NCBI GenBank assembly: GCA_033344795.1
Contig: JAWPMS010000001.1
Span: forward strand, 2,344,507-2,408,506
Direction: 5' to 3'
Origin: Acidimicrobiia bacterium
Lineage (GTDB): Bacteria > Actinomycetota > Acidimicrobiia > Acidimicrobiales > SHLQ01
DNA length: 64,000 nucleotides
Shown: positions 1,778 to 54,665 of the stretch, in pieces
Numbering within the stretch: position 1 is the first letter of the stretch
Layout: every line of letters begins with the position of its first letter
Position numbers and translations under genes: made by a program
The notes under the pieces: generated by a model
What the model was told of the DNA's origin: nothing
Databases searched by the model: none
What the model saw: the letters and a program-made list of their open reading frames with translations, nothing else

Positions 1778-3117
1778 AAGCCGAGGTCACCGCCGGAGAT
1801 CCGCACCGCACCAAACTCGTCGTCGACGAGGTCGACCCAGACGCCGGTTTGGCCATCGATGGATCCTGACAGCACCATCGCCCGCGAATCGGGAGACCAC
1901 CAGCTCGACGAGTGGTTGTACTGGTCGGCGAATGGCAAGTACGAGGTCGCGAATTCCTGGCTGGGAATGAATGGCGTGAGCATCGACACCCCGTCGGGTG
2001 TTGCGACGAGCCACTGCAGGGTGTTGTTGCCCGCCTGCAACATCGCCAGGCTCGATCCATCGGGGCTCCACTGCATGGCGACGATCTGGCGTTCGTCCCT
2101 CGTCGTGACCTCACGAGTGTCGAGGTCGATGATCGAGACCTGGCCACTCGGAAGATCCGGTGGCTCGTCCGTCTGGAAGCCGATCACCTGTGATTGTGGT
2201 GGCTCGACGTCGATCACCAGCACAGCCACCTGCCCTTCGGTGGGGTTGTTGGTCGTGGCCACCGGACCCGAGCTGCGGCCGATGGCGTCCTGGCTCCCGT
2301 CTGCCCCGAGGAGCACGACATCGTTGAAGCCGTTTTGGAGCACGGCGACCACGACGTCGTCGGCTCCCTCATCTCCACCCGCCACCACGGCAGGTGTCTG
2401 AAATGCTCCGAGGGGACTCGCCAGAACACGCGGCGTGGGTGGCACCTCGCCAGAGGCATCAATGACCGTGAGGGTTGTCGTGCCGACCGCAGCAATGATC
2501 GAATCGTCGTCCAGCCAGTCGAAATAGAACGGTTGTCCGGTCGCTACCGCCCGCACTTCGGCACTCTCGGGGTCGGCCACGACGAATTCGATGCTGGCGG
2601 GTACGGGCCGAAGGGCGGCGATCCACGTGTCGTCGGGCGACCATGAAAGATAGAACGCTGGGCTGCTGACGGCGGCGCTCACGACGTTGGAGCCGTCAAC
2701 ATCGGCGACGAAGAACCTCGGACCATCGGTATCGATCGCTGTCCATGCCACACGGTCGCCGTTGCGCGAAAACGTCGGTTGGTTGAGGAGCGATTCTGCG
2801 CCGGATGCGAGTTCTTGTCGATCGTTTCCATCGGGCCGTACAACCACGAGACTTCCGTCGTCATCGCGCAGAACGATGGAGCCGTCGACATTTGCGAGAT
2901 CGTTGAGCGCAACCGGGGGGATTGTCGGCAACGTCGGCTGCGGCGAGTCGGGCTCGTTGTCGCCAGCTGGAGCCTCCGTCGTCTCCGGCATTCGCTCGTC
3001 GGCATCGACCGTGCCCGTCACCGTTGGTGCGCTCGTGGGTGCCGCCGGGCGCGTGCCGCCCGACGAGCACGCGCTCACAAGCAGAATTGAAATCGCGAAC
3101 CTCAGAAGCCGGTTCAG
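1762..3117 (-). CDS. lipoprotein with TolB-like/PD40 beta-propeller repeats; probable non-canonical (CTG/ATT) start
   Basis: The track ORF starts at GTG 3078 (MSACSS...). The in-frame upstream codons encode a textbook lipoprotein signal, NRLLRFAISILLVSAC. The body has repeated W(S/T)PDG-type propeller motifs (WSPDDTW, WSPDGSS, WSPDSRA). Confidence 0.6.
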   Translation of the reverse strand: MNRLLRFAISILLVSACSSGGTRPAAPTSAPTVTGTVDADERMPETTEAPAGDNEPDSPQPTLPTIPPVALNDLANVDGSIVLRDDDGSLVVVRPDGNDRQELASGAESLLNQPTFSRNGDRVAWTAIDTDGPRFFVADVDGSNVVSAAVSSPAFYLSWSPDDTWIAALRPVPASIEFVVADPESAEVRAVATGQPFYFDWLDDDSIIAAVGTTTLTVIDASGEVPPTPRVLASPLGAFQTPAVVAGGDEGADDVVVAVLQNGFNDVVLLGADGSQDAIGRSSGPVATTNNPTEGQVAVLVIDVEPPQSQVIGFQTDEPPDLPSGQVSIIDLDTREVTTRDERQIVAMQWSPDGSSLAMLQAGNNTLQWLVATPDGVSMLTPFIPSQEFATSYLPFADQYNHSSSWWSPDSRAMVLSGSIDGQTGVWVDLVDDEFGAVRISGGDLGLWSAR

Positions 3118-4460
3118 TTGAATGGATCCTCGTCTCTCGTGCGATTGAGGAACGTTTCTCTCGTCGGCCGGTTGCTCGAATCAGGGAAGCGGGCGATCAG
3201 TTCACGTGCCTGGTCTACCCATTGATCTCGTTCGATCCGGCCCGGGAACTCCATCAACGCATCGTCGACCCGTGCGACCCCTGACTCGTCGAGGCCCGCC
3301 AACTGTTCCCACGAGGTGATTCCGAGCGTTGCGAGGAGTTCTTCCATCCGTGGTCCGATGCCCCGGATCACCTTCAGGTCATCGATGTGGTCAGCGGAGG
3401 CGACACCAAGGGTCTCCACAGTCGCAAGGTTGCTGGTGGCGCTGACGGTTGTGTCGTCGGCGTGGTGCGCCTGATGTATTGCCTCGCCGGACTCCACATG
3501 TTCGCCCATGCTCGGGGCTGCGGCCTCGAGCGCTGCGATGCGCCGGTCGCGTTCGGCGAGGTCCACCCGAAGTTGACCGATGATCGCGGTGCTTCCGTTC
3601 TCGTCGTCGCGCGCCCGTTCCTCGAGCTCGCTCACGCGGGCGTGTGCCGCATCGAGATCGGCGGTGGCCGTCGAGAGTCGGGCGTCGAAATCGGCGATGC
3701 GGCTCTGTGAGACATCAAGTTCGGTTCGGGCCGCCTTGAGCGCCGCGTCGAGCTCTGCCGAAGTCGTTTGGGCCTCGTGAACCTGATCGGCGATCAGGGC
3801 GGCTGACGCAGCGCCCGACTCGAGCTCCTCGAGACGCGTGGTCTGGGCGGCGGCGGAATCACGCACGGCGGCGAACTCTGCCGACTTGGTGTCGAGCTCA
3901 GACTGCAGGACCTGGGTTTGCCTGGTCAGTTCCTTCAGCTCGCTCAACGCGCCTTCGAGCTCGGACTCGCGTTCTTCGACCGATTGCTCGAGCTGACTCC
4001 GACGAACAGCTCCATCCTCGAGTTCTTTGCGGAGACGATCGATCTCTTCGTCGAGCGCTTGCCGCTCTTCGTTGGAGGTGGTGGCCGCGAGCAGCTCCGC
4101 CTCGAGCGACGCGCTTCTCTCTCGGGCATCGACAAGCTCGCTATTGGCAATCTCGATATCCGCGGCCAGACCTTCGGCCTGATGTATTGCCAACGAAGCC
4201 TTGTCGTTCGCAACAGACACCTCATCGGTGAGCGTGTTCACCTGGTTTGCCAGTATCGAACGCTCGTTGTTGGCCTCCTCGTACGCCGCTCGTACGGCCG
4301 CCTCGTCGGCCTTGGCCTGATTGGCGTTGGCCGCGAGCTGGTTCCACTCGCTCGCATGAATGGTTCGTCGACGCCATCGCCAAAGGAACCAGCCGATGAG
4401 GACGCCCAAGCCAACCGCAAGAAGTAGCGGAATGAGGATCTCCGGTAGTACCCAAGTCAT
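3114..4460 (-). CDS. membrane-anchored coiled-coil protein with C-terminal helix-hairpin-helix-like domain
   Basis: 448 aa. N-terminal TM (ILIPLLLAVGLGVLIGWFLW), about 300 aa of Ala/Glu/Leu-rich coiled coil, C-terminal DDLKVIRGIGPRMEELLATLGITSWEQLA. GAAGGAG SD lies 9 nt before ATG 4460. Confidence 0.6.
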   Translation of the reverse strand: MTWVLPEILIPLLLAVGLGVLIGWFLWRWRRRTIHASEWNQLAANANQAKADEAAVRAAYEEANNERSILANQVNTLTDEVSVANDKASLAIHQAEGLAADIEIANSELVDARERSASLEAELLAATTSNEERQALDEEIDRLRKELEDGAVRRSQLEQSVEERESELEGALSELKELTRQTQVLQSELDTKSAEFAAVRDSAAAQTTRLEELESGAASAALIADQVHEAQTTSAELDAALKAARTELDVSQSRIADFDARLSTATADLDAAHARVSELEERARDDENGSTAIIGQLRVDLAERDRRIAALEAAAPSMGEHVESGEAIHQAHHADDTTVSATSNLATVETLGVASADHIDDLKVIRGIGPRMEELLATLGITSWEQLAGLDESGVARVDDALMEFPGRIERDQWVDQARELIARFPDSSNRPTRETFLNRTRDEDPFN

Positions 4461-4495
4461 GAGATGTGCTCCTTCAGGGAACGAGGGCGTGGCAT

Positions 4496-6037
4496 CTAGA
4501 AGCCCTCCTTGGCAAAGAACTCGACTCGTCGGTTCTGGAGTCGGCCTTCTTGCGTGCTGTTGTCGGCGAGGGGTTGCGTTTCACCAAATCCCACGGATCG
4601 AAGCCGCTCGGGGTCGATGCCCGAGGACGAGATGTAACCAACGACGGCATCCGCTCTTCGTTGCGAGAGATCCCGGTTGTATTCTTCTTCACCCTCGGAG
4701 TCGGTGTGACCGCCGGTCTCGACGACCGGTCGGGAATAACGATTCATCGCATCGACGACCTTGTCGAGGGTGACTTGTGCCGATGGAGCAAGCTCGTCGG
4801 AGTCGGTCGCGAACACCACGGTCTCTCGAATCTCGTCTTGGAGCGAGTCGAGCTCGGCTTGAAGGAGATCGATCTCTTCCTCGAGAGAGAGTTCGGGAGC
4901 TGGTGGAGGGACGACGCGCACTTCGCCGCCGGGACGAAGGTTGGCGGCACCGGTTGCCGCAACAGCAGTGGCCGTCGCTGCCTGCCCGGCCGAGTCCTCG
5001 GCTTCGCCGTTGACGGTGATGTCCGTATCGTTGATTGTGGCGTCGGCCGACGTCAAGTCATCGAATGTCGAGATCACCGACGCGAGAGCAGACACCCGCG
5101 CAGCAGATCCGGGAACGGCCTCGGGCAGGTCGGTGACCGCCAGGTTGTTGACCACGTTGATTGTGCCGACCACAGAAGACGACGCAACGGCGAGTTCGAG
5201 ATTCTGCTCCATGCTGAAGACCGTGCCGTTCAAAACGATTCGGGTGCCGTCGAAGACCACTGACACGTCAAGTGATTCCAACGTCGGTGGGGATGTCACG
5301 GTGACATCATCGCCGCTCACACCGTCGAGGAGTTCCGCGAACTCGGGCGAGGTGGCCGCGATCGTGCCAGTCACGGGTCCAGTGTCGCCGACGAGTAGCT
5401 CGGCCGTCTCGAAATAGCCGTTGAGCAATCCGCCCACCGCCGAGCTGAACTTCTTGATCTGGCCCGCTGCATCCGACGATGACGGCTCCAGTCCCGACAC
5501 CGTGATCGCGTCGGCCACGATCAAGCCGGTGGCGTCCGCGGCATTCAAGATCTCGTCCTTGTCGCTCTGCGAAGGAACGGAACCCGTAAGCGTCAGTGTG
5601 ATGCCGTCGGAACGAGCATCGAGCGCAATTGGGCCGAACAAGGGAGGGGGAGCGTCGCTGGCGGCGACGGTTGCCGTCCGGATGTCCGCGTTGTCGGGGC
5701 CGGTGCCACGCTCCAGGATCTGGACGAGCTCACCCCGGTCGGTGCCCAATGCCATCTTCCCCCCGACCTCAACATCGCGGTAGGTGGCATTGAACGTGAG
5801 ATTGGAGGTGTCGATTCCGGCGTCGATGAGCAGTTCCTCGGCGGCCTCCTCCACGTCTTCCTCGATGTGTTGCACGGCCCAAATCGTCGAGATGGCGAGA
5901 AACGGCAAGATGATGAGCGGAAGAATCCAGGCCCAGCGCCGGGATTCCCAAGGCATGAAACCCTGAGAGGTGCCCTCGAGCAGCGCGGGGCGGGTCCAGT
6001 CGACCGGTCCGTTCAGCTGTTCGGGGGTATTCGCCAT
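4496..6037 (-). CDS. OmpA/MotB-domain peptidoglycan-binding protein with N-terminal TM and BON-like repeats
   Basis: C-terminus GHTDSEGEEEYNRDLSQRRADAV...GFGETQPL...NRRVEFF is an OmpA_C-like domain. Start moved to ATG 6037 (MANTPEQ...) because GAGGAGGAG SD sits 5 nt upstream. The track ORF extends to 6082. Confidence 0.8.
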   Translation of the reverse strand: MANTPEQLNGPVDWTRPALLEGTSQGFMPWESRRWAWILPLIILPFLAISTIWAVQHIEEDVEEAAEELLIDAGIDTSNLTFNATYRDVEVGGKMALGTDRGELVQILERGTGPDNADIRTATVAASDAPPPLFGPIALDARSDGITLTLTGSVPSQSDKDEILNAADATGLIVADAITVSGLEPSSSDAAGQIKKFSSAVGGLLNGYFETAELLVGDTGPVTGTIAATSPEFAELLDGVSGDDVTVTSPPTLESLDVSVVFDGTRIVLNGTVFSMEQNLELAVASSSVVGTINVVNNLAVTDLPEAVPGSAARVSALASVISTFDDLTSADATINDTDITVNGEAEDSAGQAATATAVAATGAANLRPGGEVRVVPPPAPELSLEEEIDLLQAELDSLQDEIRETVVFATDSDELAPSAQVTLDKVVDAMNRYSRPVVETGGHTDSEGEEEYNRDLSQRRADAVVGYISSSGIDPERLRSVGFGETQPLADNSTQEGRLQNRRVEFFAKEGF

Positions 6038-6132
6038 GAATCTCCTCCTCGCCCGATGTGTCGAGGCGGCCCTGTCCGCCACCCCGCCAGCGTACGGTGA
6101 TTCTCTGGTCGGGGTTGGCTCAGGCGCACGGG

Positions 6133-7095
6133 CTAGCCGACGACAAGAAACTCGATTCGCCGATTGACCGCTCGACCCTCGTCGGTGATGTTCGGTTCGA
6201 GCGGTTTCGACTCGCCGAAGCCAACGCCGGTGAGCCGCGACTGATCGATTCCTCGTTGCGCCAATGCAAGGATCACCGCATCGGCACGTTCCTGGCTGAG
6301 TACCTCGTTGCGCACGTCGTCGCCATCGGAATCGGTGTGGCCGTGCACCTCGACTCGGAGTCCAGGTGCGCCGCTCAAGATGGTGGCCACCGAATCGACG
6401 ATGATCGATCCTTCGGGGGTGAGTGAGGCGCTTCCCGTTTCGAAGGTGATCTGACCAACCGATGAAAGCTGTTGTTGTACGCCGCCGGTCTGCTCTGCTG
6501 ACGAAGCGGCTGGCACGACGGCCCGCTCCTCGATCGCTCCGCCGACCACCACGACTCGATTGTCCACCCGTTGCGTGCCTTCTACCGATCGTGCGACGGC
6601 GCCGATCGAGGCCGCCGCCGTCGGATCAGCTGCTTGACCGTTGATGATGATCGTGCCGTCCTCTTCGGTGACGGTCAATCCGTCGAATCCGGCTCGCAAT
6701 TGAGCATCGTGCACAGCGACTGCAAGCTCGGACTGCTCGACCACCGCTGCTTCGTCGTCACTGGGTTCACCGATGGACCCCGAGCGAATTGCCATCCCGA
6801 TCACGAAGACGGCGCACAAGAAGAGAAGAAGTGGAATGAGGAACCGCGGGTCGGTCCACGAGCTGCCGGGCTCGGCGGGGGGAGGACGGGTTGGTTGCCG
6901 CGGACGTCGAGTCGGGCCCGGGCCACCGCGATCGAGATCATCGAGATCGAGTAAATCGATGTCATCAGGAGGCCGAACGGACATGAAAACACGGTACGGG
7001 CCGGCGATCAGGCGGTGGTGGACGCTCACGGCTGGGCCGTCGGAACCATCTCCTTGGGCTATCGGAATCGAATGTCCGATCGGCCCTTCTTTCAT
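6133..7095 (-). CDS. OmpA/MotB-domain peptidoglycan-binding protein
   Basis: C-terminus VHGHTDSDGDDVRNEVLSQERADAV...GFGESKPL...NRRIEFLV. One TM (FLIPLLLFLCAVFVIGMAI). The start is uncertain; ATG 6984 is an alternative. Confidence 0.75.
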   Translation of the reverse strand: MKEGPIGHSIPIAQGDGSDGPAVSVHHRLIAGPYRVFMSVRPPDDIDLLDLDDLDRGGPGPTRRPRQPTRPPPAEPGSSWTDPRFLIPLLLFLCAVFVIGMAIRSGSIGEPSDDEAAVVEQSELAVAVHDAQLRAGFDGLTVTEEDGTIIINGQAADPTAAASIGAVARSVEGTQRVDNRVVVVGGAIEERAVVPAASSAEQTGGVQQQLSSVGQITFETGSASLTPEGSIIVDSVATILSGAPGLRVEVHGHTDSDGDDVRNEVLSQERADAVILALAQRGIDQSRLTGVGFGESKPLEPNITDEGRAVNRRIEFLVVG

Positions 7096-7123
7096 CGGGA
7101 TCGACGCTCTACCTTCTTCATCA

Positions 7124-8149
7124 ATGGACCCCTTCGCGCTAGACGATCACGCTCAATTGGCCCTGGAAGTGGCCAAACACGCCGCACTTGCAAACGGTGA
7201 TTCCCGTTGTGGGACCGAGTATCTGCTGTACGGGCTCGTCGCCACGGCACGCGGGGACATGGTCGAGCTGATCGAGCTCTTTGCGCTCAACACGCTGCGG
7301 GTTGACAGAGCGATCGAGCGAATACTCGAAGCGCGGCCTGGCGCCGACCCCCTCGCTCCTCGTTCGCCTGATCTGACAGAGCGGGCCATCGCCGCGTTGT
7401 CAACGCCGCGGCTCGATGGCAAGGGCCCTACAGGGTCATTCGAATTGCTCCACGGATTGCTCCTCGATGACGAGTCAGGCGCTTGTGTGGTGTTGCGAGA
7501 TCTCGGGGTGCAACCCGAGGAAGCTCGCCGGCTCGTGAGCTACGGCATTCGCCACCTCTCTCGTCAGGAGATCGATGACCTGCTGGCCACGCTCGATCGT
7601 CGAGAGGGCGATCACCGGCCGTGGTGGGGACCCGACCCAGCAAGTCGGATCAGCTCGATCCGGACGCCGTTGCACGTTGCATCGAGCGATAGTGCTCGCA
7701 TCGATCTGACTGCCCTTGGGTCGGATGGTTCCGGACTCGGGTTCACACTTTCGATCCGGTCCTTGCGGACATGGGTTCTGCCTCCGAAATTCGCGCCGGA
7801 GGAAGCGTTGATCCCCGGGCTTGGAGCGCAATACAACGACGGACCTGACTTCTTCCTGTTGCAGCTCGTGCTGCCCGATGGCACGGTTCTCGACAACCGA
7901 TCGGTCGCGGACCGGTTCAGCGTGGCGCAACCCGAACTCCCTCGCCTCCTCCGTATTGGCCAACGCGACGAGCACATCAATCTGAACGATCGTCGTCAAC
8001 ATGATCAGCACGTGATCACCGGGGACTGGTGGGTTTGGCCGCAACCGACGGCGGGCCCCGTCGAGGTTCGCATCGACTGGCCAGCAGAAGCCGCGTCGGG
8101 CGCGGTCACCTTCGATCTCTCGATCCTCACCTCCGCAGAGAGAAGCTGA
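7124..8149 (+). CDS. Clp N-terminal (Clp_N repeat) domain protein
   Basis: From ATG 7124: MDPFALDDHAQLALEVAKHAALANGDSRCGTEYLLYGLV... and a second repeat LTERAIAALS...GSFELLHGLL. The track ORF from 6773 overlaps the divergent OmpA gene and was trimmed. Confidence 0.6.
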   Translation: MDPFALDDHAQLALEVAKHAALANGDSRCGTEYLLYGLVATARGDMVELIELFALNTLRVDRAIERILEARPGADPLAPRSPDLTERAIAALSTPRLDGKGPTGSFELLHGLLLDDESGACVVLRDLGVQPEEARRLVSYGIRHLSRQEIDDLLATLDRREGDHRPWWGPDPASRISSIRTPLHVASSDSARIDLTALGSDGSGLGFTLSIRSLRTWVLPPKFAPEEALIPGLGAQYNDGPDFFLLQLVLPDGTVLDNRSVADRFSVAQPELPRLLRIGQRDEHINLNDRRQHDQHVITGDWWVWPQPTAGPVEVRIDWPAEAASGAVTFDLSILTSAERS

Positions 8150-8193: not shown

Positions 8194-8562
<369 letters not shown>

Positions 8563-8574
8563 GAAGGAATCACC

Positions 8575-8931
8575 ATGGCCAAAGTCACGATCTACCACAA
8601 CCCACATTGAGGTTCGTCGAAGAACGCCTTGGCGGTCGCCGAGGATCTGGGTGTCGACCACGATGTCGTGCTCTATATGAAAGAACCGCCTGACGCGAAG
8701 ACCCTCAAAACAATCATTGCGGGCTTGGAAGATCCGGTAGAGGATCTCGTTCGCAAGGACAGCCAGTTCAAGAAGCTCGGGCTCGACGCAGACGACTACG
8801 TCGGCAATCCTGATGCCGTCATCGAGCTGCTGTCCCAGCGAAAGGCGCTGCTTCAGCGTCCGATCGTCGTCAAGGGCAAGAAAGCCATCATCGGACGACC
8901 GAAAGCTCGAATCCGAGAGTTTCTGAGCTAG
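8575..8931 (+). CDS. arsC: ArsC-family (glutaredoxin-type arsenate reductase-like) protein with in-frame TGA at the catalytic Cys position (selenocysteine candidate, or pseudogene)
   Basis: GAAGGA SD then ATG 8575. Reads MAKVTIYHNPH-TGA(8608-8610)-GSSKNALAVAEDLGV..VLYMKEPP..LVRKD..QRPIVV..IGRPK. The track only reports the portion from TTG 8629. The frame is continuous apart from the TGA. Confidence 0.6.
8627..8644 (+). promoter_or_regulatory. candidate bacterial SECIS-like hairpin downstream of the in-frame UGA
   Basis: CCUUGGC(8627-8633)-GGUC-GCCGAGG(8638-8644). A 7-bp stem (one G-U pair) with a G-rich tetraloop. The stem starts 19 nt after the U of UGA. Confidence 0.35.
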
Positions 8932-8985: not shown

Positions 8986-9738
8986 GTGAGGACGTACTCG
9001 AAGGCTCTCGTTGTGCCGTTTGTGGTGCTGGCCCTCTGGTTGTTCCCGAGCGACCCGCCGGCGGTACTCGTGGCCGGAGCTGTCGAGACCTCGTCCTCGT
9101 CTGTGCTCGAGTCGTTGGCTGACGCAGCGCCGACGACGGAGGTCGTCACGTCCGTTGCGCAGTTCGCTCCAACGTCTGGTACCGATACGACTGCCGCGCC
9201 GCAACCGCCAGCGTCGTCGACCTCGACTTCGGTGGCTCCCGCGACGACCATCGAGCTTGCACCACCGACCACCAGTGCATCGACGACCACCGCACCGTCG
9301 GTTCCCCTCGGTCAACAAGCGCTCGACCGTGTTTCCTTTGACTGGCGAACGCGCTTTCCAAATTGGGTCGTCGAGTTTCGAAGCGCTCGCGAAGGCATCA
9401 GAGCTCTGACCTATCCAGCGGAGCGTCGGATAGAGGTTTTTGTTCGGCCGAGCGACACCGCATCGACGTTGCATCGAGTCTTCGCTCACGAATTGGGCCA
9501 TCTGATCGACGTAGAGCTGAACAACGATGAAGACCGCGCTCGTTGGTTCGAAACGCGGGGAATCGCGCAGTCGACGCCTTGGTGGCCGTCAGCGTCGGCG
9601 CCAGATTTCGACACCGGAGCTGGTGACTTCGCCGAGGCGTTCGCGGTTTGGGAGACCGGGGTGTCGTCGCGGTCGACCGTTGGTGATCAGCCCGATGCAG
9701 CGGACCTCGAGTTGTTGCGAGAGCTCAGCGCCGGCTGA
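8986..9738 (+). CDS. secreted protein with HExxH zinc-metallopeptidase-like motif
   Basis: 250 aa. N-terminal hydrophobic signal (VVPFVVLALWLF), Ser/Thr/Pro-rich linker, FAHELGHLID motif. Confidence 0.5.
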   Translation: MRTYSKALVVPFVVLALWLFPSDPPAVLVAGAVETSSSSVLESLADAAPTTEVVTSVAQFAPTSGTDTTAAPQPPASSTSTSVAPATTIELAPPTTSASTTTAPSVPLGQQALDRVSFDWRTRFPNWVVEFRSAREGIRALTYPAERRIEVFVRPSDTASTLHRVFAHELGHLIDVELNNDEDRARWFETRGIAQSTPWWPSASAPDFDTGAGDFAEAFAVWETGVSSRSTVGDQPDAADLELLRELSAG

Positions 9739-10629: not shown

Positions 10630-11076
10630 TCAGTCGCGCGCTCGCAGGCGCACCGAGGTGACCGCTTGGTCGATCGGGCGAGACGTGGCTTCGTCGATGA
10701 CGATTGGATGGACCGATTCGCCGGTCGAGGTGTCGAACAGTTCCACCCCAGCTCCATTTCGGAACAACCAGTCGTCTCCGAACTGCCACATCGTGAGCAG
10801 GACATCCCACAGGGCCCGACCCTTTGCGGTCAGGACGTAGTCGTGGCGGACAGGCCGATCCTGATAGGCGCTCCGTTCGACGACGCCTTCCTCCTCGAGG
10901 CGTCGCAACCGCTGGGTGAGTATGGCCTTGCTGATGTCGAGTTCTTCTTGAAGTTCTGCAAAGCGCGTCTTGCCCAAAACGAGCTCGCGGAGCAACAGCG
11001 GGGTCCACCAATCGCCGAGCAGATCAGTGGTGCGTGCGATCGGGCAGTAGGCCCGATCAAATCTCGTCCGCCTCAT
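10630..11076 (-). CDS. HxlR-family transcriptional regulator
   Basis: 148 aa from ATG 11076: CPIARTTDLLGDWWTPLLLRELVLGKTRFAELQEELDISKAILTQRLRRLEEEGVV. The start overlaps the stop of the upstream gene (TGATG, shared A at 11076). Confidence 0.85.
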   Translation of the reverse strand: MRRTRFDRAYCPIARTTDLLGDWWTPLLLRELVLGKTRFAELQEELDISKAILTQRLRRLEEEGVVERSAYQDRPVRHDYVLTAKGRALWDVLLTMWQFGDDWLFRNGAGVELFDTSTGESVHPIVIDEATSRPIDQAVTSVRLRARD

Positions 11077-13370
11077 CAGCTGACCAGTTCGAGCTTGGCG
11101 GGAACGTGCTTGTGCCATGGGGTGCCAGCGATTGGATCCTTCCAACTGAGAGACGTGAGTTCGTTGGGCGCGACGCCGGTGACCTCGGGGCTGCCTCCGG
11201 CTGGCGAGTAACCGAGCCCGAGACCGTTGGGAAGTGCGATGTGACCGCGCTGCATGGTGGCGTTGACATCCGCAACAGCGACGGCCGTCCCTTCCGCAGT
11301 CGTGATCCGCACCCGACTGCCGCTCTCGATGCCGAGCACCTCGGCATCGGCGACGCTCAGTCGAAGAGCGCCTTGTGCATCCTTCTTGCGCCAACTCGGA
11401 TCTCGCATGATCGTGTTGGCGGTGAAACTCCTGCGTTCGCCGGCGGAGAGCACGAATGGGTAGTCGTCTGTTGCGAGCGATACGGGACCGTCGCGGAGCG
11501 CCGACAGTTCTTCGAACATCTCGGGCAGGTCGAGATTGATCTTCTGGTCGGCGGTTCGCAGGAGGTCGAATCCTTGATCCGGCTCGTGTCGTGTGAGGGC
11601 AGTGCCATCGCGGCTGTCGATCAACGCGTCGAACAACGCGTTCCCCAACGCTGCGCCTTGTCCCTCATGCCCAGCCGCCTGGACCTGTTGCGGGTATCGC
11701 ATCGCGAGTTGTTGAGCGCTGAACCACAGCGGGGCTGCTGCGGACATGCCATCCGGCAGTGTCTTCCCGATCGTCTCATACAGCACGACTGCGCCCAGCG
11801 AAGCGAGCATCGGGTTCTCTGCTGCTGCGCCCAGGAATGCGGCGCCAAAGGCGTCATAGCCCTCCTGAGCGGCCTCTCGAAGCGGCTGAAGGTCGTCCTC
11901 GGCCACAAATCCCATGGCCTTTGCGAGTCTGGAGTGGATCTCGGCTTCGGGAAGCGTGCCCTCGAGCGGCTCGAGAAGGGGCTTTCTGAGCGTGGCTCGG
12001 TTCTCCGGGAAGGTCATGTTGAAGAAGGTCATCTCGGCCTTCTCATATTGGCTGGCTGCGGGAAACACGTAGTCGGCTTCTCTGGCGGTCTCGGTCATCG
12101 CGACGTCGATGACAACAGTGAGTTCCATCGCTCGCATGGCGTCACGAAATGAACCTGAGCTGGCGAGCGAATGCACAGGATTCGCACTTTCGATGAACAT
12201 CGCTCGTGTTCGGTCCTCGTGGTCGCTGAGGATTCCCGCAGCGATGTCGTTGCACGGGATCAGCCCGGAGATCACCCGGCCGCCAGTGATGGGGTCGATT
12301 GGTTCGGACCCCGATGTTCCATAGCTGAACAGCGGCACGATTGCGGTGTGTGCGTTCATCGCGCCGGGTTTGCCGTAGCTGCCGACGAGCGTGGAGAGTG
12401 CTCGCTGGAGGTACGAGACCAACGTGGAGTGTGGGGCCATTTCGACGCCGAGATCTTCGTAGATCGACACGCTTTCGGCCCGTGCAATTCGTCGGGTCGT
12501 TTCGCGGATCCGTTCCTCGGAGATGCCGCACCGGGCCGCATAGTCGGCGATCGGGATGTCTGTGAAGGCGGCAAGCGCCTGTTCGAGGCCGATGACGTTT
12601 TCTGCGAGCCAGTCGTGCGCCACGAGGTCTTCTTCGACGAGTACGGCGAGCATCGCGGCCAGCAGGAACGCATCACCGCCAGGGTTGACCTGAAGGAAGT
12701 AGTCCGCGAGGTCGGCGGTTTCCGTGCGGCGAACGTCGATCACGACCATCGACCGATCGTCGTCGGCGGCGATCTCCTTCAACACTCTTCTCGTTTCGTC
12801 GAAGCCGTGGCTGTGCCAGGGGTTCTTTCCCAGGAAGATCGAGACCTCGGCGTCCGCGAATTCACCATGGGTGTGCGTGCCGTACATTCGGCCTTCCACC
12901 CAGGCCTCGCCGGTCTTCTCCTGGGCAAGTGCATTCGATTTTCGTGTGATGCCGAGTGCATTGCGGAGTCCGGCGCCGTACAGGCCGCCGAGGTGGTTCC
13001 CCTGGCCGCCACCGCCGTAGTACATGATCTTGCCTTCGCCGTGTTCGGCGTTGACGGCAAGGAGAGCCGCAGCGACCTCGTCGATTGCCGTGTCCCAGTC
13101 GAGTGTGATGTAGGAGCCATCATCGAGCCGTTTCAAGGGATTGGTGAGTCGTCCGGCCGCGTTCTGATAGTGGTTGAGCCGAAGGGCCTTTTCGCACGTG
13201 TAGCCCTTGGAGGAGACGTGTGATTTGTTGCCGCGAACTCGCGAGAACTCACGACCGTCCAGCCGTACTTCCACGCCACAATTCGCGCTGCACAAGATGC
13301 AGACCGTCTTGTGCCATTCCGGGTCCGGCGTGGACTCGGCGTCGTTCGATGCGGCATCGCTGATTGTCAT
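11076..13370 (-). CDS. molybdopterin-dependent oxidoreductase (formate dehydrogenase/BisC-like family) with N-terminal 4Fe-4S motif
   Basis: 764 aa. N-terminal CILCSANCGVEV...KGYTCEK Cys cluster. Typical MopB motifs and a C-terminal molybdopterin dinucleotide-binding domain (ALRLSVADAEVLGIESGSRVRITT). Confidence 0.85.
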   Translation of the reverse strand: MTISDAASNDAESTPDPEWHKTVCILCSANCGVEVRLDGREFSRVRGNKSHVSSKGYTCEKALRLNHYQNAAGRLTNPLKRLDDGSYITLDWDTAIDEVAAALLAVNAEHGEGKIMYYGGGGQGNHLGGLYGAGLRNALGITRKSNALAQEKTGEAWVEGRMYGTHTHGEFADAEVSIFLGKNPWHSHGFDETRRVLKEIAADDDRSMVVIDVRRTETADLADYFLQVNPGGDAFLLAAMLAVLVEEDLVAHDWLAENVIGLEQALAAFTDIPIADYAARCGISEERIRETTRRIARAESVSIYEDLGVEMAPHSTLVSYLQRALSTLVGSYGKPGAMNAHTAIVPLFSYGTSGSEPIDPITGGRVISGLIPCNDIAAGILSDHEDRTRAMFIESANPVHSLASSGSFRDAMRAMELTVVIDVAMTETAREADYVFPAASQYEKAEMTFFNMTFPENRATLRKPLLEPLEGTLPEAEIHSRLAKAMGFVAEDDLQPLREAAQEGYDAFGAAFLGAAAENPMLASLGAVVLYETIGKTLPDGMSAAAPLWFSAQQLAMRYPQQVQAAGHEGQGAALGNALFDALIDSRDGTALTRHEPDQGFDLLRTADQKINLDLPEMFEELSALRDGPVSLATDDYPFVLSAGERRSFTANTIMRDPSWRKKDAQGALRLSVADAEVLGIESGSRVRITTAEGTAVAVADVNATMQRGHIALPNGLGLGYSPAGGSPEVTGVAPNELTSLSWKDPIAGTPWHKHVPAKLELVS

Positions 13371-15426: not shown

Positions 15427-16644
15427 TCAGGCCGGAAGGCCCAAAAGTCGAGCGATGATGTTCTTTTGAATGCTGGAAGCGCCTCCGTAGATCACGCCGC
15501 CACTGAGGTTTCGGAGATCTCGTTCGACGCCGAACTCGGTCACATAGCCGCGGGCACCATGTATTTCGACTGCGGCGAGTGCTCCTGCGAGCGCACCTTC
15601 ACTTCCGGCGAGTTTGCTGAGCGCTGCAGCCATCATCGAGCTTGCGCCTTGTTGTTGGAGCGCTGCGGCTTTGTACATGAGCAGCCGGGCCGACTCGTGC
15701 CCGAGCTTGACCTGGCTCAACGCATGCGAAACGCCTTGGAAAGATCCGATCGGCTCGCCGAACTGCTCTCGTGTTCGGCTGTATTCGACTGCGTCGTCGA
15801 GGACACGCTCGAGGGCGCCGATGCTGCCCACGAGGAGAAAGCCGCGTTCGGCTTCCATCGACGAGCTGAAAATGCTGGCGCCCGCCCCTTCGGCGCCCAT
15901 GCGGGCAGAGGTCGGCACGAAACAATCGGAGAACGTGACATCGGAGAAGGGCGTCGTGCGCATGCCCATCTTCGGGCGGTTCGGGCCCACCGTCAGGCCG
16001 GGAGTTGTGGCGGGTACGCAGAAGGCGGTGATTCCCCAACGGCCGAGCTCAGGGTTTGTGGTGGCGAAGATGATGAAGACATCGGCGACCGGGGCCATCG
16101 TGACCCAGCTCTTCTCTCCGTTGAGGACGTAGCCGCTCTCGACAGGAGTGGCCGTCGTCTGCAGCGAGTACGCATCGGAGCCCGAGCCGGCTTCGGACAT
16201 CGAGAACGATCCGATCGCCTCACCGCTCACCAGCTTCGGCATCCATTCGGCGGCCTGTTCTGGGGTGCCGAACCGTTCCATCGCCAATCCAACGGTCAGA
16301 ACTTGTGACGTCGTTGCGAAGACCAGCCCGTCATCGCGGCAACCGAGGCCCAAACCTTCGAGAGCCAGCAGTCCAGCGGTCAACGGGCGCCCTTGGCCAC
16401 CGAAGTCGGGTGAGGCCAGCAGGCCGAAGAGGCCCTCGCGTCCAATTCGTTCCCACCCCTCACGCCAGAAGGTGCAGCTGTGGTCTCGTTCCTCGAGCTG
16501 AGAGTCTGCCAGGTTGTGGCGAGCCCACTCGGCGACCGCCATCTTCGTGGGATGCTCGCCATCGAGAATTGCGGTGAGCATCTCGGTATCGGAGGCGTCG
16601 TCAAGGACCACGAGGTCATCCACCTGTGCATCCACGGCCTTCAT
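15427..16644 (-). CDS. acyl-CoA dehydrogenase-family flavoprotein (cluster-associated; IYGGAS instead of canonical YEG)
   Basis: 405 aa with ACAD N/M/C layout (GSFSMSEAGSGSDA, WVTMA, REQFGEPIGSFQ). C-terminal motif reads VIYGGASSIQKNII, whereas the other ACAD at 45570 has IFEGTEQIQQ. Divergent from the NRPS genes. Confidence 0.85.
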   Translation of the reverse strand: MKAVDAQVDDLVVLDDASDTEMLTAILDGEHPTKMAVAEWARHNLADSQLEERDHSCTFWREGWERIGREGLFGLLASPDFGGQGRPLTAGLLALEGLGLGCRDDGLVFATTSQVLTVGLAMERFGTPEQAAEWMPKLVSGEAIGSFSMSEAGSGSDAYSLQTTATPVESGYVLNGEKSWVTMAPVADVFIIFATTNPELGRWGITAFCVPATTPGLTVGPNRPKMGMRTTPFSDVTFSDCFVPTSARMGAEGAGASIFSSSMEAERGFLLVGSIGALERVLDDAVEYSRTREQFGEPIGSFQGVSHALSQVKLGHESARLLMYKAAALQQQGASSMMAAALSKLAGSEGALAGALAAVEIHGARGYVTEFGVERDLRNLSGGVIYGGASSIQKNIIARLLGLPA

Positions 16645-16712
16645 CGGCTTCGTACCTCTCTCACACCGCGAGGAATCTCGCAGTTGCCACTACGCAACGA
16701 GTACCACACAGA

Positions 16713-16724
16713 TGCAAATTTGCA
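16713..16724. promoter_or_regulatory. perfect 12-bp palindrome TGCAAATTTGCA in divergent promoter region (candidate operator)
   Basis: Lies in an AT-rich patch of the 210-bp intergenic region between ACAD (start 16644, minus) and the A-domain gene (start 16855, plus). Confidence 0.35.
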
Positions 16725-16854
16725 ATTCGAGTTCGCCCGGCGATCCAGCACTGAAATCCTTCGTGTCCAAAAGAACTATTTGCCCTGTCTACGTTCCGCG
16801 GCACGCTGTTGGATGCGAGATATCCGACCGATTGAAGAGAGGGAGCGTGCAAAC

Positions 16855-18462
16855 GTGAGTGTCGCCGTCGATCGTCGCGACGCGCCGTCGTTGAGTGGCC
16901 TGCTCGACGCGCAAGCCATGCGCTCTCCTGACAGCGACGCGGTTGTCGACGTCTCGCGCACGTGGTCCTACGCCGAAGTAGCGCAGGCTCGGGGACAGCT
17001 TTCCGCCGCGCTCCTTTCGTGCGGTGTTGTTCCAGGCGACCGCGTCGGCGTGCACCTGAACAAATGTGCTGAGGGATTCGTGGCAATGCATGCAGTCGTA
17101 TCGGTGGGAGCCATTGCGGTGCCTCTCGATCCGGGCTCCCCGGCGGTGCGGCTCGCACGCATCTGTGAACGAATGCAGATCGACGTGATCGTGTCGCATC
17201 AACCGCGCGTGGGCACACTCATGGAAGTACACGCACTCCGACCGATCGGCGCACTAATCGGCGTTGCGAGTGAGGAGCTCGACACCCGCTCGATCAGCTC
17301 CCAACAGTTGGCCGACTTCGAGGAAGCCTCGCCGCTCGACGTTGATGTCGACAGCCCGTCCTACATCATCACGACATCGGGCTCGACCGGCGAACCGAAG
17401 GGAATGGTGCACACACATCGAAGTGCGCTGGCCTACGCCAACATGACCCTTCGCACGTATGGGCTCTTGTCAGAAGATCGCGTGAGTGACATCGCCCCGC
17501 ACCACTTCGACATCTCGACACACTCACTGTGGTCCGTGCCACTCGCCGGGGCGGCAAACGTTGTCATCTCCGAGCCGTATCAGCGGTTGCCGGCGAGCCA
17601 TTCCCAGCGCCTCCAGGACGAACGTGTCTCGTACTGGTACTCGGTTCCCTTCTTGTTACACCAGCTCGTCCTGCGCGGCGATCTGAAGAATCGAGACCTG
17701 TCAGCCCTGCGGTGGGTTCACTTCGGCGGCGAAGTGATTTCGCCCACGGTCATTGCTGAGTTCATGCAGGCGGCCCCCAACGCCCGCTTCGCGAACATCT
17801 TTGGCCCCGCCGAGACGAACCAGTGCTCGGTGGCCTTCTTCGACGACGCTCCGGATCCAGACAAGATGTTGTCGGTGGGGTTCCCTCTCGATCACAGCGA
17901 TATTCGAATCATCGATCCCGCAGCGGACCACCCGGGACTCGAGAACGCCGTTCAGAGCGGCGAGATGTGGGCGTCGACGCCGCAGTTGATGGAGGGGTAC
18001 TGGCAACAACCAGACCTCAACGCTCGAGTCCTCGTCGAATGTGATGGGAAGACCTGGTATCGCACAGGCGATCTCGTCTCGACCGACGAGACCGGTGAGA
18101 TGACGTTTCATGGACGAGTCGATCATCAGGTCAAGGTTCGCGGATTTCGCATTGAACTCGAAGGCATCGAGTTGGAACTCGAACAACTCGGCGCTGCAGA
18201 TCATGTGGTGGTCGCCGTACTTCGAGCCGAGTCGGGTGAGGACGAACTGGTTGCAGGTCTGCTCGGTGTGAGCGACAAGTTCGAGCACGCTGACTTTGTG
18301 CAGCGCGCTGCATCCGTTCTGCCCGCCTACGCCGTACCTACTCAAAGCAGAGTGATCGATTCCGCCCGCTTCACTGGCAGCGGAAAGCTCGATCGACGGA
18401 CGCTTCGAGAGCACCTTCTCGAAGTCACGCAGCTCGAAACCCTGAAGGAACACCACGCATGA
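16855..18462 (+). CDS. stand-alone NRPS-type adenylation enzyme (amino acid-AMP ligase)
   Basis: Start set to GTG 16855 (GGGAG SD 9 nt upstream); ATG 16813 is an alternative. Cores YIITTSGSTGEPKGMVHTH, FDIS (Asp235 present), NIFGPAET, YRTGDLV, GRVDHQVKVRGFRIELEGIE, GSGKLDRR. Confidence 0.85.
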   Translation: MSVAVDRRDAPSLSGLLDAQAMRSPDSDAVVDVSRTWSYAEVAQARGQLSAALLSCGVVPGDRVGVHLNKCAEGFVAMHAVVSVGAIAVPLDPGSPAVRLARICERMQIDVIVSHQPRVGTLMEVHALRPIGALIGVASEELDTRSISSQQLADFEEASPLDVDVDSPSYIITTSGSTGEPKGMVHTHRSALAYANMTLRTYGLLSEDRVSDIAPHHFDISTHSLWSVPLAGAANVVISEPYQRLPASHSQRLQDERVSYWYSVPFLLHQLVLRGDLKNRDLSALRWVHFGGEVISPTVIAEFMQAAPNARFANIFGPAETNQCSVAFFDDAPDPDKMLSVGFPLDHSDIRIIDPAADHPGLENAVQSGEMWASTPQLMEGYWQQPDLNARVLVECDGKTWYRTGDLVSTDETGEMTFHGRVDHQVKVRGFRIELEGIELELEQLGAADHVVVAVLRAESGEDELVAGLLGVSDKFEHADFVQRAASVLPAYAVPTQSRVIDSARFTGSGKLDRRTLREHLLEVTQLETLKEHHA

Positions 18463-18707
18463 CCACCTCACTCGCTGAGCAATTGACAAGCTTCATCCAA
18501 GAAGAGATCGTGCTCGACGACGTCGTGGTGACCGGTGACTTCGATCTGCTGTTGTCGGGAGCAGTGGACAGTCTCGGTGTCATTCGCATCACGCACTGGA
18601 TGGAGGAGACGTTCGGGGTGGTGGTCGATCCTGGTGATGTCACGCTCGACAATTTCCAGACGATCGACAAGATGGCCGCATACCTCGACGCCCGAGCTGC
18701 GGTCTGA
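18459..18707 (+). CDS. stand-alone acyl/peptidyl carrier protein
   Basis: 82 aa with LLSGAVDSLGVIRI (DSL phosphopantetheine site). ATG 18459 overlaps the TGA of the A-domain gene (ATGA coupling). Confidence 0.85.
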   Translation: MTTSLAEQLTSFIQEEIVLDDVVVTGDFDLLLSGAVDSLGVIRITHWMEETFGVVVDPGDVTLDNFQTIDKMAAYLDARAAV

Positions 18708-18712
18708 ATTTC

Positions 18713-21700
18713 ATGACCAACTCGGTGTACCTCTCACCACGACGCTCTCTCACACCGTCGCAGGAACTGATCTGGACATCGCAGAGGCTGCAACCGGATT
18801 CACCGCATCAGAACATGGCGCTGATCACGAGGTTCGACGCCCCCATCGACGCTGGCCGTTTCTTGCACGCGGTGGACGTCGTCGCGAGTCGCAGCGATGC
18901 GTTGCGGACGACGGTCCGCGAGGTCGATGGGGTTCCGCACCCCGCCATCGCCTCAGCCACACCGTCACCGTGCACGGTGCTGCGCCTCGACGAAGCCCGC
19001 CTCGACGACTGGCTCGCCGATCGGATCGCTCGACCGATCGACATCGCCACCGCCGCATACGAGTCCGTGCTGCTCGATCACGGATCAGACCGCTGGTCTT
19101 GGTTCGTCAACGTGCATCACATCGTCATCGATGCTGCGAGTTCCGCCAACTTCTTCAATGCGGTCGCCGATGAGTATCACGGTTCGCCTGCGGACGTTCC
19201 GAGCTACACCGACGTGTGGACCGAGATGTCCAGCCAGAGTGATACGGCCCGCTTCGAAAAGGCGCGCGATCACTGGGCGCTGAGCCGAGAGGCCACGCCC
19301 ACTTCGATGTACCGACCAGACTCGGGTCCCACCAGCACCGCCGATCGCATCACAATCGAGATGGACTCCGGACGACAAACGCAACTCGACGCGTTGCTCT
19401 CCGATCGTTTCAAACTGCTCAGCCCGGACCTGTCGCTCATGACGGCACTCGCCACCGCGCTGTCGGCCTATCTCGCACGGCTCGGAAACGAATCCATCAC
19501 GATCGGCATTCCGATTCATCACCGCAGCACGAAGGCGGCGAAGGCAGTGATTGGACCGCTGGTCGAGATGTTCCCACTTCAGGTCGAGGTTCGCGACGAC
19601 GACACGTTTGGCTCCCTGCACGATCGAGTGACCCGGAGCGTCTTCGAGCTTCTGCGATACGCCCTACCTGGCACGAGTCCGCGTCAATCGTTCGATGTCG
19701 TGCTCAATGTGCACGGGGCCACCCTTGGATCATTCGGTCCCATACCAGCCCACACGACGTGGATCCACCCAGGGCACATCGACCCGCACCATCGCCTGCG
19801 GGTCCAAGCACTCGACTACGACGGCTCCGGCACCCTGGATCTCGGTCTGGATGTGAACCACCGGATCGCCGACGCGGATCATCGCCGGCGCGCAGGGGAG
19901 CACTTCGCAACCGTGCTCGATGTAATGGTCTCCAGCCCCGACACGAAGATTCATTCCGTCGTCTTGGTCGGTGAGGGTGAGCGACTCTTGCTCGAGCCAC
20001 TCACGAACCCCTCGGCCGGAACGCCGATCGACGACGTGGCTCCAGCAGTCGTCGCCGACCGTCTGCGCGCCAACCGCGATGTGCCGACACTCGCCCATGG
20101 CAACCGGGTGCTGTCGGCCGTCGAGCTCGACGATCGAATCGAAACGGTCTCGACGACCTTGCGTCGTGCCGGAATTGGCCGAGGAGACCTGATCGGTATC
20201 GAGATGCCGATCGGCATCCCGGCGGTGATTGCGATCCACGGGGTTTTGCGTGCTGGTGCGGCCTTTGTTCCGATCGATCCGACCTATCCCGACGCACGCC
20301 GCGAGCACATCCGCACGGACTCTGGTTGCGCTCTGGTGCTGACCTCGCTCGAAGAGCTCGAAGCGCTCGAAGTGACGGACGCTCCGACCGTTGGCTCGAG
20401 CGACGTCTCTGCCGACGATCTTGCCTATGTGATCTACACGTCGGGTTCGACCGGTCTTCCAAAGGGTGTGCCGATCACGCACCGGGGCCTCTCGGAGTAT
20501 CTGGGATTCGCCCACGGTGCCTATGCGAAGCGCGAGGGTGCGTCCACACATCAGCTCTGCATGCCTCTGTTCACGTCGCTGTCCTTCGACCTGACGATCA
20601 CCACGTTGTTCTTGCCCCTTCTTGCCGGCGGCCTGATGACCGTGCACCCCGAGGGCGGACTTCCGGCTCTGCGCGAGATCGTCGATGAAGGTCGAGCGAC
20701 CATCTTGAAGGCAACACCTTCACACCTGGAGCTTCTCGTTCGGATGCTCGATGCCGAGCATCCGCTCCGAACGCTGATTGTCGGCGGCGAAGCATTCATG
20801 ACCGATCTCGCTGATCGCCTGATCGATGTCCTGGGCGAGGATGTCGCGATCTTCAACGAATACGGACCGACAGAGGCGGTCGTTGGCTGCATGGAACATC
20901 TGTATGTTCCGGCGGCAGACCCTGGCCCCGAGGTACCCATTGGTCGACCAGCGCCTGGCGTCGAACTTCACATTCTCGACCGTTTCGGCCGACCCGTTCC
21001 CCTGGGCGTCGCAGGCGAGTTGGCAATTCACCGACCTGGCATGACGCAGGGATACCTGGGTCGACCTGACTTGAACGAGGCGAAACTCGTGCACATCGAG
21101 GACTCAGGTTCGGAGTCGCTTCTCTATCGAACCGGTGACCTCGTCCGAATGCTCGATGCAGACCGCATGGTGTACCTCGGTCGAATCGATGAGCAGATCA
21201 AGGTTGGCGGGATCCGTCTCGAACCGGGCGAAATCGAACACATCGCCCTGCAACTTCCGGGCGTGCAACGAGCTGTTGCCGGACTCTGGACTCCCGACCC
21301 GAACAGCGCAGTGGAACACTGCGTTCGTTGCGGACTTGGTTCCGACGTCCCCGACGTGACCATCGATGGCGATGGAGTCTGTTCGAGCTGTCATCACTTC
21401 GATCTCGTTGCACCGCAGGCCGAGGCCTGGTTCAAGGATGAAGACGACCTCGCCCTCGCGCTCTCCGACGCTCGCAACCGATCCACCGGTGACTACGACG
21501 TCGTCCACTTGATCTCCGGTGGCAAGGACTCGACCTACGCGCTCTACAAGCTCGTCGAGATGGGTGCTCGCGTCTTCGCCATCACGTTGGACAATGGCTA
21601 CATCGCGGACGTTGCGAAGGCCAACGTTCGCCGGGCGACGAGCGCCTTGGGGGTCGACCACGAATTCGTCACCGTCGACGGCATGGACGAGATCTTCCGA

Positions 21701-51605: not shown

Positions 51606-51710
51606 GCCCTTCTGTCGCTCGGCACGGCCCGAATCCCTCGCGAGCGTCGGTTCCGAAGTCGCTCGATTATCGCGCGAGGGATTTGGCGGCGCCGGAGCGA
51701 TACCGGTTCC

Positions 51711-54628: not shown

Positions 54629-54665
54629 CGCCTCATATCGACGGACGAACAGCGAGGGTTGAGAC

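Follow-up and report, generated by a model that had tools for sequence, protein, structure and literature searches.

The 64-kb stretch of Acidimicrobiales DNA analysed here, referred to throughout as the window, contains at positions 8575-8931 of its plus strand what is very probably the gene for a selenocysteine (Sec)-containing reductase of the ArsC family, in which an in-frame UGA at the catalytic position would be recoded with the help of a hairpin acting as a bacterial selenocysteine insertion sequence (SECIS). A preliminary description of this DNA had proposed an ArsC-like reductase that is decoded with Sec by way of a bacterial SECIS, and our comparative data bear that proposal out: the TGA was present in all readable orthologous loci of the clade, the hairpin covaried, the cysteine (Cys) forms of the protein carried TGC and lacked the hairpin, the same TGA was found in further assemblies of the species, and a Sec-form selD gene was linked to the gene in relatives.

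The in-frame TGA and the ArsC reading frame

The gene comprises 118 codons and a stop, running on the plus strand from ATG 8575 to TAG 8929-8931, and its frame is interrupted by TGA at codon 12. The frame reads MAKVTIYHNPH, TGA (8608-8610), then GSSKNALAVAEDLGV...REFLS and the TAG; GSSKNALAVAE are the residues directly after the TGA, giving the motif U-G-S-S, that is UxxS, at codon 12 if the TGA encodes Sec. A mechanical list of open reading frames (ORFs) gave for this gene only TTG 8629..8931 (100 amino acids). The P-II stop at 8560-8562, the GAAGGA, the ATG at 8575, the frame and the shorter ORF from TTG 8629, all named in the preliminary description, were each found again on the sequence. 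The features of the locus are the following.

8224..8562, plus strand: gene for a P-II (GlnB/GlnK-family) signal protein; Pfam PF00543, E=3.9e-30, full profile; stop TGA at 8560-8562
8563..8568, plus strand: Shine-Dalgarno-like GAAGGA, 6 nt before the ATG; direct reading
8575..8931, plus strand: predicted selenoprotein gene of the ArsC family (PF03960) with Sec at codon 12; translation and profile matches
8608..8610, plus strand: in-frame UGA, predicted to encode Sec, at the position of R773 ArsC Cys12; ortholog codons and same-species assemblies
8627..8644, plus strand: putative bacterial SECIS-type hairpin, encoding A-L-A-V-A-E; frozen synonymous sites, covariation and RNAalifold
8629..8631, plus strand: TTG (Leu codon +7) within the hairpin, apparently the mistaken start of the 100-amino-acid annotation; ORF list and database N-termini

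For profile searches, Cys was substituted for the in-frame stop of the product. We found that it matched Pfam ArsC PF03960 over the entire profile (all 79 positions; E=4e-17, with 62.7 bits where the cutoff is 24), and that its best NCBIfam model was TIGR00014 arsC at 95.3 bits, which is under the equivalog cutoff of 106.05. Membership of the Spx/MgsR subfamily was considered and rejected, since the best Spx-type model (TIGR01617 Spx/MgsR) scored 53.6 bits, under its cutoff of 75.05, and since the motif is UxxS with the second Cys absent. Among solved structures the best match was PDB 3RDW, a putative arsenate reductase of short length (residues 2-117 aligned with 5-120, E=1.8e-18), and R773/E. 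coli ArsC (PDB 1I9D/1JZW) was matched by phmmer with E=2.4e-16, query 1-113 aligning to chain 1-112. In the 1I9D alignment the TGA falls on Cys12, while Arg60 (DLVR), Arg94 (LLQR-P, query R95) and Arg107 (IIGR-P, query R108) are kept, so that the collinear R773 alignment put forward earlier, with the TGA on the nucleophile and the three arginines retained, was reproduced. Moreover, the equivalents of these arginines (LVRK, QRP and GRP motifs) were invariant in 79/79 predicted proteins. The Cys count was zero in all 79, which would make Sec12 the sole redox-active chalcogen. R773 ArsC follows a monothiol logic: a single nucleophile forms the adduct, and its resolution is left to external glutathione/glutaredoxin. 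To judge from its predicted sequence, a Cys-free protein with invariant Arg positions matches this logic, unlike the UxxC/CxxC Spx-like or "ArsC 2" types.

The ortholog scan took one genome per species and yielded 80 loci, the closest relatives of the window gene, with upstream sequence present in 78. The codon was TGA in 78/78 readable loci, a count that describes the Sec-ArsC clade only and not the whole ArsC family, and protein identity to the window ranged down to ~68%. Across the loci the TGA was preceded in frame by M/V-x-x-V-T-I-Y-H-x-x-x and followed by G/N-S-S-x-N-A-L-A-V-A-E; the record titles named Acidimicrobiales/Acidimicrobiia, Ca. Microthrix and Verrucomicrobiales/Akkermansiaceae/Roseibacillus, and some of the contigs were 280-380 kb long. 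Codons -6, -5 and -4 (Ile, Tyr, His) were 100% conserved with two synonymous codons in use for each, and because I-Y-H is fixed despite this synonymous variation, we take the stretch before the TGA to be translated and under protein-level selection. The same TGA was also found in two contigs from runs SRR23272297 and SRR25654120, whose identity to the window over 15-19 kb is 98.4% and 98.9%; since two independent assemblies share it, neither a base-call error nor a mutation confined to one strain can account for it. Thus, the questions raised at the outset, whether orthologs carry TGA at this site and whether the base call is supported, were both answered in favour of the TGA.

These results bear directly on the reading that the locus is a Cys-ArsC pseudogene, made so by a sequencing error or by a recent nonsense mutation that turned TGC/TGT into TGA. 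A single-base change from TGC or TGT does yield TGA, and gene callers treat the locus as truncated. Against this stand the TGA in every readable ortholog down to ~68% identity and in the two same-species assemblies, the protein-level purifying selection on either side of it, and the covarying hairpin, described below, that is restricted to TGA forms. We consider a nonsense mutation or sequencing error to be effectively refuted by the comparative data, with hardly any probability left to it.

The way in which databases treat these proteins raises a further alternative. Our protein homolog sample consisted of the 120 best database matches, 88 of which were N-terminally truncated, with 84 starting at the TTG within the hairpin (MAVAE/LAVAE N-termini); another 24 were full-length with W at position 12, and 8 were Cys forms. 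The TGA forms among these closest database proteins (112/120) are all wrong, being either 100 amino acids or shorter or bearing W at the active site, so annotation pipelines lose the catalytic residue of Sec-ArsC in essentially every genome carrying it. The Cys homologs, including P0014, P0025, P0042, P0045, P0067 and P0101, were full length at 66-70% identity, and the codon in Cys-form DNA (L081-L084) was TGC. One could argue from the gene callers' choice for 84/120 best homologs that the UGA ends an 11-codon leader peptide and that the real product is the 100-amino-acid protein from TTG 8629, TTG being a legal start. Such a product, however, would miss the first beta-strand and the whole HNPxC/U loop (ArsC residues 1-17), and its TTG lies within the conserved stem without a Shine-Dalgarno sequence of its own. 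At protein level, moreover, the upstream 11 codons are conserved, I, Y and H without exception and despite synonymous changes, and the Cys-form homologs are full length. A leader peptide is therefore a very improbable explanation of the locus.

The hairpin and the proposed selenocysteine decoding

The segment 8627-8644 is predicted to form the hairpin CCUUGGC-GGUC-GCCGAGG, whose 7-bp stem has no mismatch (one of the pairs is G·U) and whose loop has 4 nt. The spacer between the UGA and the hairpin is 16 nt (19 nt counted from the U), which puts the loop Gs 24-25 nt past the UGA. Both the minimum free energy and the centroid folds contain the hairpin, in agreement with the 7-bp GGUC-loop structure, 19 nt from the UGA, that had been described at this place. 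As a predicted structure it fits in its geometry the published generalisation of the bacterial SECIS, namely a stem of 6-8 bp and a loop whose conserved G lies ~20 nt past the UGA (PMC4605307; criteria also in PMC1088965).

In the codon-aligned set (n=79), codons +6 to +11 were frozen synonymously (GCC 76/79, TTG 66/79, GCG 78/78, GTC 79/79, GCC or GCU only, GAG 72/73), while all other four-fold codons of the Sec-ArsC gene showed three or four synonyms. The stem positions were paired in 98.7% of cells and three of the seven pairs had double compensatory changes (n=79). None of 500 shuffles reached the observed covariation score or the number of double-changed cells, and partner-slid controls were paired in only 29-70% of cells. 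When run on the aligned set, RNAalifold predicted the hairpin 8627-8644 as the sole structure. A G-C to A-U exchange (TTG to TTA together with GCC to GCU) occurred 5 times, in loci labelled as both phyla, and its A·C intermediate never did; a U-A to C-G exchange occurred 4 times in Verrucomicrobia-labelled loci, each with a Glu-to-Gly substitution, so that in four such loci an amino acid change restores a hairpin base pair. The hairpin of L070 carried two double changes, and the GGUC apical loop was invariant in 79/79 sequences. Thus, the hairpin proved to be both conserved and covarying among orthologs, and it would be an unusually clean case of an RNA element constraining a protein, the SECIS fixing the peptide ALAVAE.

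We found a different picture in the Cys forms. Where Sec forms have NALAVAE these have NALALLKE, NALALLDE or NAITIADE, and the 18-mer homologous to the hairpin is essentially unstructured, at -0.1 to -1.1 as against -10.7 kcal/mol in the window. The comparison of Sec and Cys forms that had been suggested therefore gave a consistent answer: TGC homologs exist, and the hairpin is tied to the TGA forms only. Within the window, a simple scan for TGA codons that are flanked by open frames and accompanied by a GGU-loop hairpin left the ArsC site alone as plausible. A TGA with a hairpin at ~9314 on the minus strand (stem CGACGGU, loop GCGGUG, open flanks), which lies antisense to an ORF at 8986-9738, was judged a chance match. 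Two TGA-joined in-frame ORF pairs on the minus strand, at ~33301/33302 and 29437/29438, were also set aside as further selenoprotein candidates, because complete Metallophos and PGA_cap genes of relatives are as long as their downstream segments.

The selenocysteine machinery was sought by tblastn with E. coli SelA, SelB and SelD probes against the window and the 80 loci (~1.2 Mb). SelD matched in L045 (E=5e-74) and L047 (E=7e-61), 5-8 kb from the Sec-ArsC gene. Both selD genes (about 17.6-18.7 kb in L045 and about 15.3-16.3 kb in L047; AIRS and AIRS_C domains confirmed) read SQYSHGAG-TGA-ACKLGP, with the in-frame TGA at L045:17669-17671 and L047:15329-15331, a position that we take to be that of E. 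coli SelD Cys17. In each, the TGA is followed by a stable hairpin whose apical motif is GGUC or GGUUC. Since this Sec-form selD shares a contig with Sec-ArsC in L045 and L047, at least two genomes of the clade carry a second, unrelated gene with a conserved TGA and a hairpin, and that gene encodes the selenium-donor enzyme. By its Sec-ArsC gene, the source Acidimicrobiales bacterium is marked as a probable selenocysteine user. In the sister order Actinomarinales, selA, selB, selC and selD, the last as a Sec-form SelD, have been reported in 84/84 complete genomes (bioRxiv 10.64898/2026.04.03.716425).

It is here that a decoding of the UGA as something other than Sec has to be weighed, namely that near-cognate or reassigned decoding inserts Trp, Cys or Gly there. 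Some database translations do have W at codon 12, and the Sec machinery of the source genome was not observed in the 64-kb window. The W forms (P0002, P0006, P0010, P0013, P0038 and P0050) come mostly from ENA, and they match TGA DNA: the N-terminus of P0038 matches L077, whose DNA has TGA. In our reading the W is an artefact, produced by translation with a code in which TGA means Trp, and such entries could mislead homology-based annotation. Moreover, ordinary genes in the window end in TGA more often than in any other stop, the neighbouring P-II gene among them, which argues that there is no genome-wide TGA reassignment. Trp or Gly as the catalytic nucleophile would be inactive, while the hairpin at SECIS distance and the same-contig Sec-form selD point to Sec. 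Read-through as another amino acid therefore has only a slim chance of being correct.

If the UGA encodes Sec, the product would be a 118-residue reductase of thioredoxin-like fold with Sec as its single catalytic nucleophile. The UGA at 8608-8610 would be recoded in translation and not read as a stop, the hairpin 16 nt downstream serving as a SECIS that tethers SelB·GTP·Sec-tRNA(Sec) at the ribosome entrance and so allows Sec to be inserted; the tethering step is suggested by the anatomy and conservation of the hairpin. The protein would retain the HNPx-U-GSS-K/R-N anion loop and the three arginines, which in R773 ArsC hold the oxyanion. A monothiol-type mechanism is most likely, in which the Sec12 selenolate would attack the oxyanion (arsenate by homology) and the selenium adduct would be resolved by an external low-molecular-weight thiol or a glutaredoxin-like partner. 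Both the catalytic chemistry and the substrate are inferred.

Several results weigh against a Sec-containing arsenate reductase and must be set beside this evidence. No tRNA was found in the 64-kb window, and ARAGORN detected tRNA-Sec neither there nor in 60 related loci, where selC need not be linked. Pfam identified none of SelA, SelB and SelD among the 20 largest window ORFs, as expected for a 64-kb sample, and the Sec-decoding capacity of the source genome is deduced from relatives. The tblastn search returned no SelA or SelB in the window and the 80 loci, which is a weak test given the distant probes and flanks of only 10 kb. The fold energy of the 63-nt segment alone was no better than that of shuffled sequence (z=-0.05) in a GC-rich background, and because the single-sequence energy is not special, the case for a SECIS rests on the comparative data. 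Rfam gave no match at the gathering threshold over the window, nor at E<=10 over 8540-8760, and it has no usable bacterial SECIS model, as the preprint cited above (bioRxiv 10.64898/2026.04.03.716425) likewise states. Reviews of 2022 and 2026 know the ArsC selenoprotein family from bioinformatics only. Finally, arsenate as the substrate is a homology-based guess, since Sec and Cys forms alike fall under the TIGR00014 cutoff at 88-97 versus 106.05 bits (Cys-form relatives 87.8-97.1; another Sec form with C substituted 94.4), and no arsenic-resistance genes (arsR/arsB/acr3/arsA) were found among the neighbours in the window, L045 and L085-L091.

Substrate, P-II linkage and gene neighbourhood

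The scores and neighbourhoods just described raise the possibility that the gene encodes a genuine selenoprotein with a role other than arsenate reduction, acting as a selenol-based reductase on another oxyanion or on a thiol/disulfide substrate, perhaps in connection with metabolism under P-II control. The scores of Sec and Cys forms alike lie under the arsC equivalog cutoff, ars genes were seen in none of the examined neighbourhoods, and the best solved relative, 3RDW, is an uncharacterised putative arsenate reductase. In addition, the P-II adjacency survives in a second, otherwise different context (L088/L089), and reviews give the function of the ArsC selenoprotein family as unknown. On the other side, the arsC model is far ahead, with 95 bits versus 54 for the Spx subfamily, and the Cys12 and Arg60/94/107 constellation of arsenate reductase is strictly conserved. 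Marine bacteria encounter arsenate as a phosphate analogue, and a stand-alone housekeeping arsenate reductase is plausible in them. We therefore hold a non-arsenate role to be a serious possibility, somewhat short of an even chance.

Two neighbourhoods contain genes that touch on this subject. In the window, a molybdopterin oxidoreductase at 11076-13370 on the minus strand (cytoplasmic, 764 amino acids, N-terminal Fe4S4 Cys motif) is paired with an HxlR/MarR-type (RrpB-like) redox regulator at 10630-11076, also on the minus strand. The oxidoreductase was rejected as an arsenic enzyme: it scored 44.8 versus 359 bits with the arsenite-oxidase model, its best score was with Fdh-alpha at 196 versus 666, and no equivalog cutoff was reached. 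At L088:4948-5688 and L089:5021-5688, a MIP-family channel lies two genes upstream of the P-II/Sec-ArsC pair, after a GntR regulator. Aquaglyceroporins of the MIP family can conduct arsenite, and the channel is a possible functional hint.

The gap between the P-II gene and Sec-ArsC is 12 nt and contains no promoter- or terminator-like sites. NCBIfam P-II models scored 145.9 and 145.5 bits on the product of 8224..8562, under their equivalog cutoffs. The two genes were adjacent in 9 syntenic genome loci and in L085-L091 too, and P-II lay 2-4 kb off in two more; in L088/L089 the pair is kept though the wider neighbourhood differs. The adjacency was absent in ~67 other loci, for example in L045, where Sec-ArsC stands between a SerB-like gene and gcvT/gcvP. 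An intergenic stretch so short and free of promoter- or terminator-like sites makes it probable that Sec-ArsC is co-transcribed with P-II in the window lineage, as a subclade feature. The co-transcription proposed in the preliminary description is thus plausible where it was proposed, given the 12-nt gap, the lack of a terminator and the subclade adjacency, but it does not hold family-wide.

Taken together, the data could be joined into a broader scenario, in which a non-arsenic housekeeping selenol reductase would be expressed in an operon with a P-II sensor in one Acidimicrobiales lineage, and the gene with its near-identical SECIS would have moved between Acidimicrobiia and Verrucomicrobiota. 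We regard this combination as unlikely and offer it as speculation. If true, the P-II operon would link a selenoenzyme to nitrogen/energy status, and the inter-phylum move with a near-identical SECIS would imply that SelB recognition is compatible across phyla. Two of the loci with Verrucomicrobiota labels, L001 (CAXMRH010000073.1, labelled Chthoniobacterales) and L002 (JBLIMK010000048.1, labelled Verrucomicrobiales), are ~61% GC and show the gene order OmpA-OmpA-ClpN-like-PII-SecArsC-Tag, as do the Acidimicrobiales loci and the window; mis-binning or mislabelling is probable for both contigs.

In the window itself, tandem OmpA-domain (BON/OmpA) proteins are encoded at 4496-6082 and 6133-7095, both on the minus strand, in an actinobacterial-type genome. 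A Clp_N-like protein at 6773-8149 adjoins the OmpA pair, and the OmpA genes are syntenic with P-II/Sec-ArsC across the subclade. The next ORF after Sec-ArsC, 8986-9738 on the plus strand, encodes 250 amino acids with a hydrophobic N-terminus and a Ser/Thr/Pro-rich linker; it is syntenic and had no Pfam match at E<=1e-4. The same was true of ORFs at 51264-53135 (plus strand, 623 amino acids), 3114-4580 (minus strand, 488 amino acids) and 53438-54784 (minus strand, 448 amino acids). A nonribosomal peptide synthetase (NRPS) cluster occupies 16414-26692 on the plus strand, with an AMP-binding enzyme at 16414-18462, a small PP-binding carrier and an ORF of ~2,684 amino acids at 18638-26692. In the near-identical contig L090 the giant NRPS ORF has Condensation, AMP-binding, PP-binding and Thioesterase domains.

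Comparison with known systems

The SECIS of E. coli fdhF, the archetype of the bacterial element, has a GGUC apical loop (G22-C25), of which SelB contacts G23 and U24. Like it, the window hairpin is a stem-loop immediately 3' of the UGA and inside the coding sequence. It differs in that its loop is ~5 nt further from the UGA, at positions 27-30 from the U, and in that it has no evident bulged U and no conserved lower stem.

At the protein level, the window gene shares with R773 ArsC (1I9D, 1JZW) the HNPxC-G-[ST]-S-[RK]-N loop and Arg60, Arg94 and Arg107. R773 ArsC, which is glutaredoxin-coupled, needs no redox residue for catalysis other than its nucleophile. The window protein, by contrast, would have Sec in place of Cys12, is 118 versus 141 amino acids long, has zero Cys, is encoded outside an ars operon and scores under the TIGR00014 and NF007456 cutoffs. 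The Yersinia pestis protein 3RDW (121 amino acids) resembles the window protein in its short architecture and in its catalytic motifs; it comes from Gammaproteobacteria, is a Cys form, and is uncharacterised and presumably YfgD-like. "Arsenate reductase 2"/arsenate reductase-like proteins (cd03032, NF041106) and Spx belong to the same Pfam ArsC/Spx superfamily, but have a UxxC/CxxC dithiol-type motif, whereas the window protein is UxxS and lacks the resolving Cys.

The closest relationship is to a family predicted ~20 years ago from ocean metagenomes. "Arsenate reductase" (COG1393, UxxS; 14 sequences) was among the new selenoprotein families of the Sargasso Sea (Zhang, Fomenko & Gladyshev 2005, PMC1088965), and "Arsenate reductase (ArsC) 1" (pfam03960/COG1393/TIGR00014, UxxS) was described also from the Global Ocean Sampling data (Zhang & Gladyshev 2008), so that the earlier statement that ArsC-like selenoproteins had been predicted in marine metagenomes agrees with the literature. 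Such proteins were found in genomes of Deltaproteobacteria too (PMC1794560). By its predicted U-G-S-S motif the window gene is a member of this published "ArsC 1, UxxS" family: Pfam family, Sec position and UxxS motif are the same, and nothing essential differs. Both have a SECIS-like stem-loop past the UGA with a G in a small apical loop, a marine/aquatic distribution and widespread Cys homologs. Relative to the published family, it is new how strongly the SECIS is conserved and that it covaries, as are the phylum labels, the complete lack of Cys, the P-II synteny of a subclade and the systematic mis-annotation. A well-defined Cys-free member with Sec/Cys ortholog pairs makes a convenient target for biochemistry. 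No new category is opened, and what novelty is left concerns the substrate, the P-II linkage and a near-identical SECIS in two phyla.

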